Shown piece after piece: positions 27,246 to 57,710 of a stretch of DNA of 64,000 bases; the stretch's first letter is position 1; each line of letters begins with the position of its first letter. Position numbers and translations under genes: made by a program. The notes beneath the pieces were generated by a model. That model saw nothing but the letters and a program-made list of their open reading frames with translations, did not search any database and was not told the DNA's origin. The DNA is from Ascidiella aspersa (lineage: Eukaryota), in the NCBI GenBank assembly GCA_963924565.1, contig OZ004612.1, forward strand, positions 6,262,001-6,326,000, in the 5' to 3' direction.

Positions 27246-30200
27246 TTATTGGGATTTCTTTGAGTCGTCACCTGTAAACAACACAAGAAATGGTTTAGTA
27301 AAATGTCAATACAGTAAATGTTTAAACATTTCATTTCTGGGGGTTTTCAATTAAATTTTTATAAGTGTTGTTTTCTATTATTTTAAGAAAGTAAATGGCT
27401 AGTTTCGGAAATATGTAAAACCACATGAAAGTCAAGAGCAAAGTAACATATTTTAAGCTTATGTCCAGTAAACCTGTTGGTTAAATATAGTCAAAATTAA
27501 GCCTCTCCGAAAAGCTGTTTACCACAGGTTATACGGCAGGCCAACCCTTGGCAAGTGGTTTTATTTAATGGTTGTGTGACATTTAAATCCCAAACGTTAC
27601 CACGATTCATAATTAATTTATAGTTTTGAATTAAAAGAACAATGGAGGCTAATTACATGATATAAACCACAATCAGTAGGTTATATCGTGATTTCAAATG
27701 CTTTGTAACAAAATAACCAGTGGCCATTAGAAAAGCAAGCGTTTACCAATTGTAGGAAAACACTGTAGCACCACAATAATTACGTTATACTGTGATTTCA
27801 AATGCTTTGTAAGAGAATAATCAGTGGCGGTTGGAAAAGCCAACAAGCGTTTCAAAACTATAGAAAAAAACTCGAGCGTTCAACCCACCTTCGATGTAGT
27901 TCCTGGCCACGTATTTGAGTCCTTCATCCAAGAGGATGACCGGGAGCGAGATCTTGAGCACCATCGCCCACTCGGTGAAGTCAAGAGGACAGATCTGGAA
28001 GACGACGGGAAGAGGATCGACGTGGAGGATGACAAAGTGAAGAGCAAGAGAGAGCACGATCGATCCCACCAGCCACATGTTCTGCCATGGAGGCATACGG
28101 ATGATAGACTGGTTCTCTGACACGCTGGACGAAAACAAAAGGTATATTATTTAGAAAGATGTAGCTATGTCTTCGCTTTGGTATGCAGAGTTTTGCTCTT
28201 GGACATAGATATTCCTTTAAGAAAAGTTGATGAAGATACCAATAAATTTTAACTAAAATTGTTTGTTGTTGTGTGACAGAAACTGGAACTTATGTAATAA
28301 TGATTCTGAACCTATAAGGGGAATCATTCGGCATTTGTTTTACAAGTATAGGCAAAGAAAACTACATATTACAAGGTACTGGAATTTGAGGAAACCTATC
28401 AACCAAAATGGTCTGCCTAATCAGGATTGTAGTCGAGTATACTGTAACCGTTATAGTCAACATTACTTGAGTAATGGGGAATCACAGCATATACTCTACT
28501 CTTGTGTCAGCTACACATTACAAATTTAGCAGCTGCCCTTGACGATGACACCTTTAAACATTCGGTATGCAAGAACAAAATCCAAACAAAAAAGTTGCAA
28601 TATTGAAACATGGCTACGGCGTAAGGAACTTTAAATATAGATGTAAGGAACTTCAAATATTTAGTCGAAGACAAATTGCCAAGGAGTCACAAAAAATGAT
28701 TGACTTAATTCATAAGAAAACTCATTTATATGTATTTTGCGTATAGTTAAAGTGCTACATTGACAATAAAATGCAATTCATATGAGCAACGATTTAACAT
28801 TACTTTGTCCGTAAGTTAAATGCAAAGGCATTTGAACTTTACCAACCTGTTCAAAGCGTTGCAGAGTTCGATGACAACAAGCACAGAAAGGGCCATAGTC
28901 ATTGGGTGAGGGTCTTCGAAGATTTTGCAATCTATGCCGGAAAAGTCCTCAGAGTCGGCGGTGCATGACATGAAGTGGGTCTATTGGGAAATAAATATAT
29001 GTTGGTTGTTTTATCCAAGTTTGATTCCTTGCAAACGCAATGTCAGCTAGATGCTGACAAATAGAATTTGCATTAGATTTTAGGTTATTACAACAAATGC
29101 CAATCGCGAAAATATTGTTGGTTTCACACGCATTGTCGTTAAACCGATTTCATGCTGGAATTTTTGCCTTTAGTTATCGTGTTTGTGAAGAAAGTGAAGC
29201 ATGTGTGGTTTAGGAGATTTTCTAAAGAAACTGCCCTTTGTTTTCAACAGAATCCGGAATTTTATACGGTTGTAATACTTGGTGCTTTTGTTTCCACAAA
29301 AGCGCTTGGGTATACAACAGGTTTTTTTGGGGAACGGCAGGCCAAAACGGTATTGTTTGTTCTAGGGCGCGATTTCTTTTCACGTGATTCCATAACAATG
29401 CAACGGGAGTTAACAGAGTACACAAAGCAACTAGAGTCATGACAGTCGCTATTGTTCACTTCAAAAAAATCTAAAATTAGGATGTTCGTTTTTCTGCGGC
29501 AAAAGAGCGATGAAATACACCACGTTCTTAAGAAACATTCATTGTGTTGGTTTTGTGATATAAATTGAAGCGGATGAATCTACCCAATGTATGTTATATA
29601 AGGAGGAAGTATGGTTGAAACTTTAACAAGGTTTAACTGCGACGCTTGTTCTCACGCAGTGGTTCTTGGACTTTTTGAGACACGCCCCCCTTTTACAATT
29701 TTAACAAAACTCGCGCCCCATCGTGATTCAAACTAAAACAACATTAGGCAGAACAGCAATTTATTTCCAGGTAAGTTGCGTTAATGCGTAGGACGTAACT
29801 GTTTGTTGAATAGCAAATCTTTAATTTAAGGATTAGTAGCAGAGAACTATTACTTCGCTCTAATGTTTAGTCATAATTCACACAGAGTTTGGCAATTTCT
29901 CGCGTCCCCCTTGTGAACCTCACGCCCCCCAGTTTAAAAATCATTGTTTACGGCTGAAAATACTTTGTAAAACATATACTTACAATCTGCCACCAGGAGA
30001 GAGCTGGTCCACTAGGGGCGTACAAGAACCACCACAGGGAGGCGCCAACGGTTGCGATTCCGACGTATCCTGAGATAAATCATGTTGATATTTAGTAAAT
30101 ATAGATTTCAACTCCTTTTCTTTACCCTTCACTTATTGTATTGTAGGTATACACGGCTGATTGTTGATCAACATGAAGTGTACCAATATTTAGTATACAT

Positions 30201-33200
30201 AGAGTGAAAAAGTTCTTTTAAACAATAACATTTTATACACTTGGTTTAATCACGTAAATGTTTAGCAATTACAGATTTAAAAAAATAGGTAAACAATGTA
30301 ACAATGTACAATGTTTAAACGTCTTTACTTGTTTTTGCCCACAACCGTTTTTGGTTTAAGACAATCAGGGGTTAGATAGCATTTTCTACTATATCCTGAA
30401 CTAAACACGTTTTGTTTGTGTTCAATGTTTTTGTAACTCACCACCAACGGCGCAATAGCGCACCATAAGCCAGCCGCTGATGAGAGAGTCCTTGGTTGAC
30501 CTTGGCTTCTTCTGCATAATATCCAGATCGGCAGGGTTGAAGCTGAGGGCGGTGGCGGGCAGACCGTCGGTGACTAGGTTGACCCAGAGGAGCTGGACTG
30601 GGATGAGGGCTTCGGGCACTCCGAGTGCTGCGGCCAGGAAGATGCTGAATAGTGGAATAGATGTATTAAGTCTTGATGTTTAACATGTTCAAAATAGATC
30701 GCCAGATGGGGCAACGGAGTTAAACTGTGGTGGTAAACTGAATAATGAGTATAACAAGTCATCTTAAACTATATTGGAGGTCTAGCTAGGCCTTCCCTAA
30801 AGTTACAAGTCTAAATGGTTTTCCCGCTTTTTAAAACTATCAAATAGTATAGTGTTTTACTTATTTACATGGGATTAGTTAAAGAAAGGCTGTGATTGAT
30901 CACCAGTAGGGGAAGAAGACGCGAACTTAGCACTAGACGAAAATAAGCTGGATAAGCATTTAAAGTGACTTTACAGTTGTGTGCAAATAGGACTTTCGCT
31001 CACGCTGTGCCTAACTTAGCACTAACTTACCAGACAACTTCTCCGATGTTGGATGAGATGAGATAGCGGATAAACTGCTTCATGTTGTTGTAGATTGCTC
31101 GGCCCTCCTCGACGGCTGCCACGATAGAAGTGAAGTTGTCGTCGGCCAAAACCATGTCGGAGGCGCTCTTGGCCACCGCGGTTCCACTGCCCATTGCGAT
31201 TCCAATCTCGGCCTTTTTGAGGGCAGGGGCGTCGTTCACACCGTCGCCAGTCTGCACAAAAATAAACAGTGTCATTCCTTGTTGTTTCTGTAAGTTATGC
31301 CAGTTTTGATTGACACACAACTAAAGCCAGTGCGAAAACGATAAAGGGTTTCTAAATAGAATTTTAGTACACTTGACTGCTTGCAAATGTCTTGATTTAA
31401 TTTTTTAACTTAAAAAATTGTTCTGATGCAAGTCGTTCGGTTATGAAACTTGGTTTGGTCAAAGATTTTTGTAAACTGCAAGCCGACCGCAACTACAACG
31501 TAATGCCATGGAAACCTTCCTTTTGACTTTGCACATTGTCTCTCACTCCTAAACCGACTTACCATAGCGGTGACGTCTCCGTTAGCTTGCAGGTATTCGA
31601 CGATCTTGCTCTTGTGCGCGGGTTCGACTCGTGCAAAGAGACGAGATCTCAGACAGGCTTTGAACTGTTCGTCGGCGGAAAGGTTGTCGAACTCGCGACC
31701 AGTGTAGGATTTGCCTAAAAACAATAAACATGGTTATGTGAGAGGTAGTTTTTAACACGCAGGTGTGTTTGATCTAAATTTTTTCTAACATCAATAACAA
31801 ATGGCAAACTTTGGAATTGTACAATTACTAAAATCAGACTCAATTGTAAATCATCGATTACAAAGTAGAGACCAGTTTAAAAATTGTTTTAACTCCATTA
31901 TTGAATTTTGCCTATAGCCAACTGTTGTGTGACAAGAAGATTTAATAGATGATTCAAATTTTTAACAAAATTGCCCGATTTCGATTTAAACGATATTACC
32001 ACGATATTAGGTTGTTTTAATTAACGGCAGTTTTGCAAAAATCATAATCAGATTCTGCTGTAAAGCTGAAATGTCTATTAACTCTTTACTGGGGTTGAAG
32101 GCTTAATGTGCCAAATAACCCACCAGTTGTGTCCTCATCCTCCCCGAAGACCCCGATGCGTCTGCAGATCGCCTCAGCTGTTGCCTTGTTGTCGCCGGTG
32201 ATGACGATCACGCGGATTCCTGCATCCCTGCAATCCTGCACGGCCTGGAAGACTTCCATGCGAGGAGGATCAAGCATGCCAACGATTCCAACGAAAGTGA
32301 TTCCAGTCTGCGAAAAAAACAACAGATGTTTTTACTTTGTTGTTTGAATAGGATTGTGGTAATCTTGATGACATGTATTTAAAAGTATAGCGTTATATGA
32401 GCCACAAGTTTCACCTACATGCCATGAATAACAAAATGTTTTCACAATCTGAGCCTAAGGCTATTTGAGACCCCTTTTGTGCCAGTTTAATGTCAATTAC
32501 CTAACGACGAATATTTTATGCCCTTCAGCCAAAAATCCCTATTTATTTGAGTTTTATTGTATACAAATTATATTGCATATAAAAAAACACAAACTGACAT
32601 GCGTTCTATAAAAACTGATTGGTATGATTTCATAAGTTCAAAGGATAAAGTTCAAAACTAAAAGATTAATTCTCAAGAGGTACATTAAGACCAACCTTGT
32701 GATTTATATGAGAGTACTTTGCGGTCTGTAGTCAAAACATTCTGCCATCCCCTAATTAAAAAGACAACTCACCTCATATTCGACAAACTTGGTTGGGTCG
32801 CAGAGGTTCATTTGGCCAGGGCTTGGAGGGGTGTCCACGGTTCCGAGGGCCAGGCAGCGGAGGGTGTCCCGACCGGTTCCGTACTCCTTGACCAGACGCT
32901 GGATCTCGGCCTTGATTTCGGGTGTCATGGGAACACGTTGCTTGCCAACGCGGACGTAAGTACAGCGGTCGAGAACGCCTGAAATTGTGAGAAAAGAAAG
33001 CTTGTAGTAACAGGCCAATAGCAAAAAGAAAGGTTAGTAAGTTGAGCAAAAGCGGAATAAGCTTTTTTGTTTGCGGAAAGTGTCGTGAGAAAGGAAATGT
33101 AGATTCGGGGAATTATTTGGTACTTTTGGGTTTAATTTTGTGGTAAAGATTCAAATAAACTTCAAATAAGTTGTCTTTTAATATTAAAACAGAGAACTAA

Positions 33201-57171: not shown

Positions 57172-57710
57172 GTTCAGACGCTGGTTGATCACTAGACTCA
57201 CGACTAAGTGCTATAGAAAGTAACTTTACTGCGAGAATCCTACAAGGCGATTCGGCGAATGCTAAATCGAACCTGAGAAAAACAAATCTTGTATGTCGTG
57301 TTTTTTTACTGTCAGTCGCACACGTATCCAGCGATAAAGAACTAGTCGGAGGATTTTTTTATTGAATAAGAAATCGAAGCCGCGCTCTGGGAAACGAACC
57401 ATTTGTAATCGGCCAGCGCTTGTACAATGTTAAATTTGTGAATGTCGTATTGAAATACTTTACAACTTTAGGTATAACTGCTGAGAAAACAACGCAGCTA
57501 AAACTCTAAAGGCTCAGCGTTATCTGGCTTGCTGTCTGTTACCAATTTACGTTCAAAGCTGTATCAACTTTACGTTCTATAAATATATTTATAAAAGCAA
57601 CTCCCGTTACGTTGCGGCTCGTCGTTCAACGTAAATCGAAAACAGACTTGATGCCTAAAGACCGCAGTAGCCTCGTGATCCGCTGACAAAACAACTAGTT
57701 GTTTCTCTTG

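Follow-up and report, generated by a model that had tools for sequence, protein, structure and literature searches.

Why should two neighbouring genes for what looks like the same calcium pump be almost identical in their exons, whereas most of their introns can no longer be aligned? This question is raised by a stretch of 64,000 nucleotides (nt) from the genome of the ascidian Ascidiella aspersa (contig OZ004612.1, positions 6,262,001 to 6,326,000; hereafter the window), in which two SERCA genes, A and B, lie in tandem on the minus strand. A previous sequence-only reading had proposed that they form a pair derived from an old duplication and homogenised by gene conversion. Here we argue, from comparison of the sequences, that the coding tracts of A, B and a third copy, C, have probably (at about 0.85) been kept alike by repeated ectopic gene conversion at the DNA level. 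The strong patchiness lies between A/B and C, and not between A and B.

Copy A (27246..38735, minus strand) runs from an ATG at 38696 to a stop codon at 27246-27248, and copy B (44023..57210, minus strand) starts with an ATG at 57171. Both contain 20 coding exons with an open frame of 999 amino acids (aa), all boundaries are GT-AG, and the exon lengths are identical for 20 of 20 exons, so that the common structure noted previously is exact. A self-comparison of the window yielded 19 collinear blocks of 90-99% identity (27880-38745 versus 44657-57219). The two proteins differ in just the four residues already listed, all of them conservative changes (S19T, E192D, S864T and D994E), and 127 of the 3036 exon bases differ, corresponding to a synonymous divergence (dS) of 0.20 and a non-synonymous divergence (dN) of 0.0026. 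The per-exon counts were also reproduced to the base (exon 6, 1/156; exon 14, 2/152; exon 15, 16/221; the 39-nt leader, 1/39).

By their sequence, A, B and C are SERCA (P2A Ca2+-ATPase) genes with a predicted pump function. Sixteen of the 18 scored matches to TIGR01116 (ATPase-IIA1_Ca) are exons of A, B or C, those of A included; the best has an E value of 2e-43, and the whole-protein cut-off of 703 bits is one that single-exon matches cannot reach. All three proteins contain the P-type ATPase motifs TGES (181), DKTGT (351), KGAPE (513 in A/B, 509 in C) and GDGVND (700 and 696, respectively). Residues E309, N766, E769, N794, T797, D798 and E906 of A/B, which C also has, at -4 after E309, correspond to the two-site Ca2+ ligands in M4, M5, M6 and M8 (in rabbit numbering, E309, N768, E771, N796, T799, D800 and E908).

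Of the conserved degenerate codons in exons 1-19, 91 of 771 (~12%) differ between A and B, without significant heterogeneity (p=0.14). The longest identical silent run (33) is shorter than the permutation mean of 39 (p=0.75), and the sum of squares of the runs gave p=0.70. Patchiness between A and B, which had been offered as evidence of conversion, was thus rejected at silent codons after being tested in three ways; only the raw number of differing bases shows mild unevenness between exons, with p=0.02 over exons 1-19 and p=6e-6 once the 23-nt last exon is added. Given this uniformity, the case for conversion rests on the gap between exons and introns, on the intron edges and on the evidence from C.

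The statement that the introns of A and B cannot be aligned except near exon edges holds. The cores of 16 of the 19 introns align no better than shuffled sequences, and three exceed z=3: in intron 8 the similarity is confined to a low-complexity stretch, in intron 18 to a remnant of 72 nt, and in intron 19 to a match that is short and AT-rich. In simulations, ~19 of 19 introns could still be aligned at 0.2 substitutions per site, and a drop to the 3 of 19 seen here required at least ~0.5-0.7 substitutions per site. A uniform dS consistent with the introns had been named as the observation that would speak against conversion; dS is indeed uniform, at ~0.20, but it does not match the intron bound. 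This discrepancy, together with the carry-over of identity into intron edges, supports an old duplication followed by conversion. Intron 8 of B holds a tandem repeat of ~58-nt units (51887-52885), and its counterpart in A is a purine-skewed low-complexity sequence. High-copy interspersed repeats, relatives of which recur across the region, lie at 29556-30219, 40844-42835 and 59700-60630, where the DNA depth rises to ~590 versus ~6.

Shared sequence extends 14-50 nt into several introns. On the minus strand, A and B match at 23 of 27 positions at the acceptor edge of intron 10 (33568..33590), at 20 of 27 before the acceptor of intron 8 (34284-34340) and at 20 of 27 before that of intron 15 (30645-30669), the last being common to A, B and C; at the donor of intron 17 (29968-29983), A and B are identical for 16 nt. 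In addition, the first 20 nt of intron 7 of B (54124..54143) recur unchanged in the corresponding intron of C, but not in A. These edges go beyond the null set of 937 non-homologous pairs, in which acceptors matched at 8.9 of 27 positions on average and at 18 of 27 at most, and the longest donor run was 10.

Copy C was found by a genome search with exon 8. It lies wholly beyond the end of the window at 64000 (G000:C6:6326266-6366290, minus strand, window-equivalent 64266-104290, loci L006-L010 and L021) on the same strand as A and B, and the supposed pair is therefore a head-to-tail trio. C encodes 998 aa, shares 815 of 995 residues with A and has an overall dS of 0.87 to A and 0.77 to B; judged by its sequence, it is an older paralogue. 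It has three introns absent from A and B, and its first exon sizes (118, 18, 83, 105, 139, 81 and 86) agree with those of vertebrate ATP2A genes; the difference would then reflect the loss of three introns in the ancestor of A and B. RNA reads confirm the predicted splicing of the 3' exons of C, four joints being covered by 12-24 reads each. The first five exons (window-equivalent 100000-104000, loci L009 and L010) are separated from the rest of the gene by a 12.8-kb intron; they are AT-rich, with a GC content at third codon positions (GC3) of 0.40, and CpG-depleted, with an observed/expected ratio of 0.43-0.64 versus ~1 around them, and are possibly a methylated 5' domain.

Per exon, the silent mismatch between C and A is lowest in exon 13 (0.05) and highest in exon 17 (0.83), and the heterogeneity of the mismatch between A/B and C is pronounced (p=3e-25 and 3e-22). 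Run tests for A-C and B-C both gave p=1e-4, the floor of 10,000 permutations, indicating that silent identity is clustered beyond chance. A two-state fit delimited eight tracts (~codons 206-255, 269-298, 325-368, 426-442, 578-648, 667-743, 746-824 and 890-900), covering 379 of 995 codons, and only there does C match A/B as well as A matches B (~12% silent) or better; elsewhere it is near saturation. Silent codons private to C number 10 of 351 within the tracts versus 211 of 424 outside (140/311 from codon 150 on, and 71/113 before), and aa differences between C and A/B number 12 of 379 versus 168 of 616. In terms of protein domains, the tracts take in the final part of the A-domain together with M3, the phosphorylation site, the greater part of the P-domain, and M5-M6. 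Their limits often fall within exons beside aa differences; examples are exon 6 (its last six codons), exon 14 (its first 19 codons) and exon 8 (its first 25 codons, up to residue 324). The genealogies within the tracts conflict: of the 45 codons where A and B differ, C agrees with B in 24 and with A in 17. The longest exact match between B and C, in exon 6 of B (54852..54983, minus strand), is 132 nt, and that between A and C, in exon 13 of A (32180..32295, minus strand), is 116 nt; both exceed the longest A-B exact match (105 nt). A direction of transfer read from the count 24:17:6 (p=0.005) was rejected as biased, the tracts having been fitted on C-private sites.

Could the same pattern have arisen without any conversion? 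A moderately old duplication, with strong synonymous constraint in the core exons and very fast intron turnover, would be in line with the uniform A-B dS, with the codon bias (GC3 ~0.65 versus an intron GC of ~0.32) and with intron lengths that are still correlated (rho 0.61). Conservation alone is insufficient, however, because codon usage by itself predicts a silent mismatch of 0.57 at saturation, because runs outside the tracts that are identical in aa remain diverged (at 13/18, 12/21 and 9/14 silent codons), and because GC3 of C is 0.69 both in the tracts and outside them from codon 150 on. Equally conserved and equally GC3-rich stretches of C are 45% diverged versus ~3% for neighbours in the same exon, and constraint leaves unexplained both the intron identity that B and C share without A and the C-B exact matches longer than those of A-B. 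We therefore consider an explanation without conversion improbable. Conversion templated by reverse-transcribed mRNA, which homogenises exons only and deletes introns, has in its favour that identity mostly drops at exon edges and that A and B are without three introns of C; yet the identity reaching into several introns is impossible for a spliced template, and 19 introns have been retained in both copies, which makes this route highly improbable.

The species is polymorphic, the contigs of other samples showing ~1.3-3% differences, and some of the A/B differences are polymorphic inside one locus, so that A and B might be suspected to be two haplotypes, or the tracts of C to be chimeric joins, created by the assembly. 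At 11 A/B-diagnostic sites (those among 40 of 881 rows), the letter of B was carried by 11/11, 10/11, 11/11, 11/11 and 18/19 reads at five, by 1/10 at one and by ~40-65% at five; these counts fit polymorphism shared between the loci but would also fit private mutations. However, the raw DNA read depth in another sample was 6.0 for A (seven repeat-poor bins) and 6.2 for B (four bins), compared with 6.3 expected from the bases read divided by the genome size, repeat-rich bins and bins drawing paralogue reads being excluded. Both copies are thus present at full depth, and the haplotype duplication against which the sequence-only reading had advised a depth check was rejected as the source of A and B. 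Moreover, alleles in the other samples' contigs align through the introns at ~97-99%, whereas the introns of A and B do not align, and 13 RNA reads contain the C-private end of exon 6 flanked by two tracts that fit A as well, showing that the mosaic of C exists in another sample. The chance that an assembly artefact underlies the pattern is accordingly close to negligible.

Ectopic conversion would act as follows. Short conversion tracts would form between misaligned neighbours only where homology survives, and introns would have escaped early, as indels and repeats piled up. The proteins of A and B would be interchangeable, and conversion between their genes would be tolerated in every exon; exchange between A/B and C would persist only where both proteins are alike. 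Tracts overwriting a paralogue-specific residue would likely be purged, or would be unable to form between such a residue and the intron edge.

It should be noted that several points weigh against this account. The uniform silent divergence of A and B means that they alone provide no within-exon tract signal, and the intron bound of at least ~0.5-0.7 was obtained by a simple simulation in which the indel rates were assumed. The scarcity of C-private codons within the tracts gives no direction of transfer, since the tract limits derive from a fit to these very data. The silent divergence of the first five exons of C is inflated by their CpG-poor, AT-rich composition. Finally, the comparison covers a single genome.

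What two nearly identical pumps are for is suggested by their promoters. The core promoter of A, with a predicted non-coding first exon (39095..39290, minus strand), has a TATA box at 39185, E-boxes at 39216 and 39152 and CRE-like half sites at 39285-39243; the upstream exon is a prediction only, with zero covering RNA reads. That of B (57696..57901, minus strand) has the same elements in the same order (TATA at 57762, E-boxes at 57793 and 57729, CRE-like half sites at 57901-57827), and 102 nt around the TATA box are 80% identical. The promoters had been described as diverged, which applies to the flanks upstream of ~200 nt, where alignment is weak, and not to the core; the 3' untranslated regions have only an AT-rich 50-nt stretch in common. 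Muscle promoters of ascidians are enriched in E-box and CRE motifs (PMC6589888), and an Atp2a gene of Ciona is active in tail muscle and in papilla cells (PMC7397655).

The raw RNA data are from one run, 6% of which was read. In this run, C is expressed and A and B are silent: RNA depth is 0 over exons 1-3 and the 3' end of A and over the last two exons of B, and depth on A occurs mainly where C resembles A, the reads of C piling onto the core exons of A. A sequencing-run search with copy A returned no RNA run among the matches listed.

Of the two roles proposed earlier, dosage or a stage/tissue split, the common order of TATA box, E-boxes and CRE-like sites favours dosage; a split in expression was indeed observed in the one RNA run, but it separates A and B from C, and not A from B. 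We slightly favour the view that A and B, driven by a common muscle-type promoter, double the dose of one muscle pump, C being a broadly expressed and alternatively spliced pump. Against this view, expression of A or B was not observed in that run, and the argument for a muscle role comes from promoter motifs and from Ciona. Conversion could also be real while A and B divide stages or tissues between them, for instance larval tail and adult muscle. The weakly aligning flanks and the dissimilar 3' untranslated regions would suit such a division, the like layout of the core promoters and the silence of both copies in the one RNA run would not; we regard it as a serious possibility, although at somewhat less than even odds.

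Alternative splicing of C is suggested by exons 17a and 17b (L021:8448-8533 and L021:6307-6392, minus strand), which encode the M7 region, are both 86 nt long, open and flanked by AG..GT, and are identical at 52 of 86 nt, making them candidate mutually exclusive exons. The joints 16-17b and 17b-18 are covered by 12 and 23 reads, respectively, and none among the joints listed uses 17a. A literature search for an alternative SERCA M7 exon found none among the titles and abstract starts of the matches listed. C also has an 87-nt in-frame cassette exon (L021:805-891, minus strand) that adds 29 aa near the C-terminus; 9 and 6 reads include it, and one read and one contig skip it. In both A and B, SERCA2b-like read-through of exon 19 would give short extensions, unlike each other.

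A bolder and rather doubtful view is that the ascidian SERCA genes split early, independently of vertebrate SERCA1/2, into a housekeeping C and a muscle A/B, and that a single catalytic core is still maintained by conversion, selection having driven apart the N-domain, the luminal loops and the tail. If true, the several independent recent duplications published for tunicate SERCA would be an artefact of conversion. The residues that tune the muscle pump would be mapped by the borders of the unconverted pockets, for example at residue 324 (Ser in A/B versus Arg in C), and mutually exclusive splicing would allow C to exchange its M7 helix.

A similar pattern is found in a tandem pair of genes that are Na/K-ATPase-like by their motifs (G000:C1:8830000-8864300, loci L023-L026), in which the exons of the catalytic core are near-identical and the others diverged. 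In 12 ungapped blocks, the silent mismatch is 0.12 for the DKTGT exon, 0.14 for TGD and 0.05 for GDGVND, compared with 0.36-0.61 in the other nine; there is no intron alignment near the shared exon. The genome DNA search with exon 8 gave at least five matches, three in the SERCA cluster and two in this pair, and the 18 of 84 candidates scored in the SERCA family search all belong to one or the other. No further SERCA copies beyond A, B and C were thus found among these matches and scored candidates, both counts being lower bounds. Two vanabin matches in the genome exceed the family cut-off, as would suit an ascidian that accumulates vanadium.

The process is already known for tandem P-type ATPases and its mechanism is textbook; the SERCA trio is a new case. 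In the Leptodactylus ATP1A1 R/S study (10.1101/2020.08.04.234435), tandem P-type ATPases of the same orientation likewise undergo non-allelic conversion, with silent divergence surviving beside paralogue-specific residues. In that case the gene is homogenised except at 12 residues that resist conversion, as shown across five species and by an assay; here, from one genome and sequence alone, A and B have four conservative differences, and C has escaped over ~60% of its length while still sharing the catalytic core. The HMA4 triplicate of Arabidopsis halleri (PMC3749932) also consists of three tandem P-type ATPases with concerted evolution of the coding sequence, read as selection for dose, which provides a model for A and B. 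The HMA4 copies, however, are all near-identical, and population data demonstrated their conversion, whereas the present trio includes one old paralogue with a different expression, and its introns have reached saturation.

For tunicates, Altshuler et al. 2012 (PMC3527596) list two SERCA genes each in Ciona intestinalis, C. savignyi and Molgula tectiformis, interpreted as "several independent and relatively recent" duplications, and the main text of that paper is without the words conversion or recombination. In a literature search, most subscription journals being outside its scope, conversion between SERCA genes of tunicates was not the subject of any paper listed, and the part of PMC11341064 available has nothing on SERCA gene number. 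Conversion can bias tunicate SERCA trees, duplication dates and the assignment of RNA reads, and old duplicates would look young. The three genes display two stages side by side, namely homogenisation of exons over the whole length (A-B) and of the core only after partial escape (A/B-C), the latter repeated in the second P-type ATPase pair of the same genome; the comparison of A/B with C also yields a short list of candidate residues for muscle versus housekeeping function.

Two further reading frames in the window deserve mention. A myosin-head frame at 19927-23064 (minus strand) is free of stops over 1045 aa and contains a nearly complete domain (Pfam E 6e-165); it represents an intronless myosin gene, possibly a retrocopy, amid an intron-rich genome. 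At 380-4591 (minus strand), a stop-free frame of 1403 aa has LDL-receptor class A repeats and a seven-transmembrane domain. The 18-kb segment that holds the latter is duplicated ~32 kb upstream with ~96-97% identity, introns and spacers included, and this duplication is, on its sequence, recent, in contrast to that of the SERCA pair.

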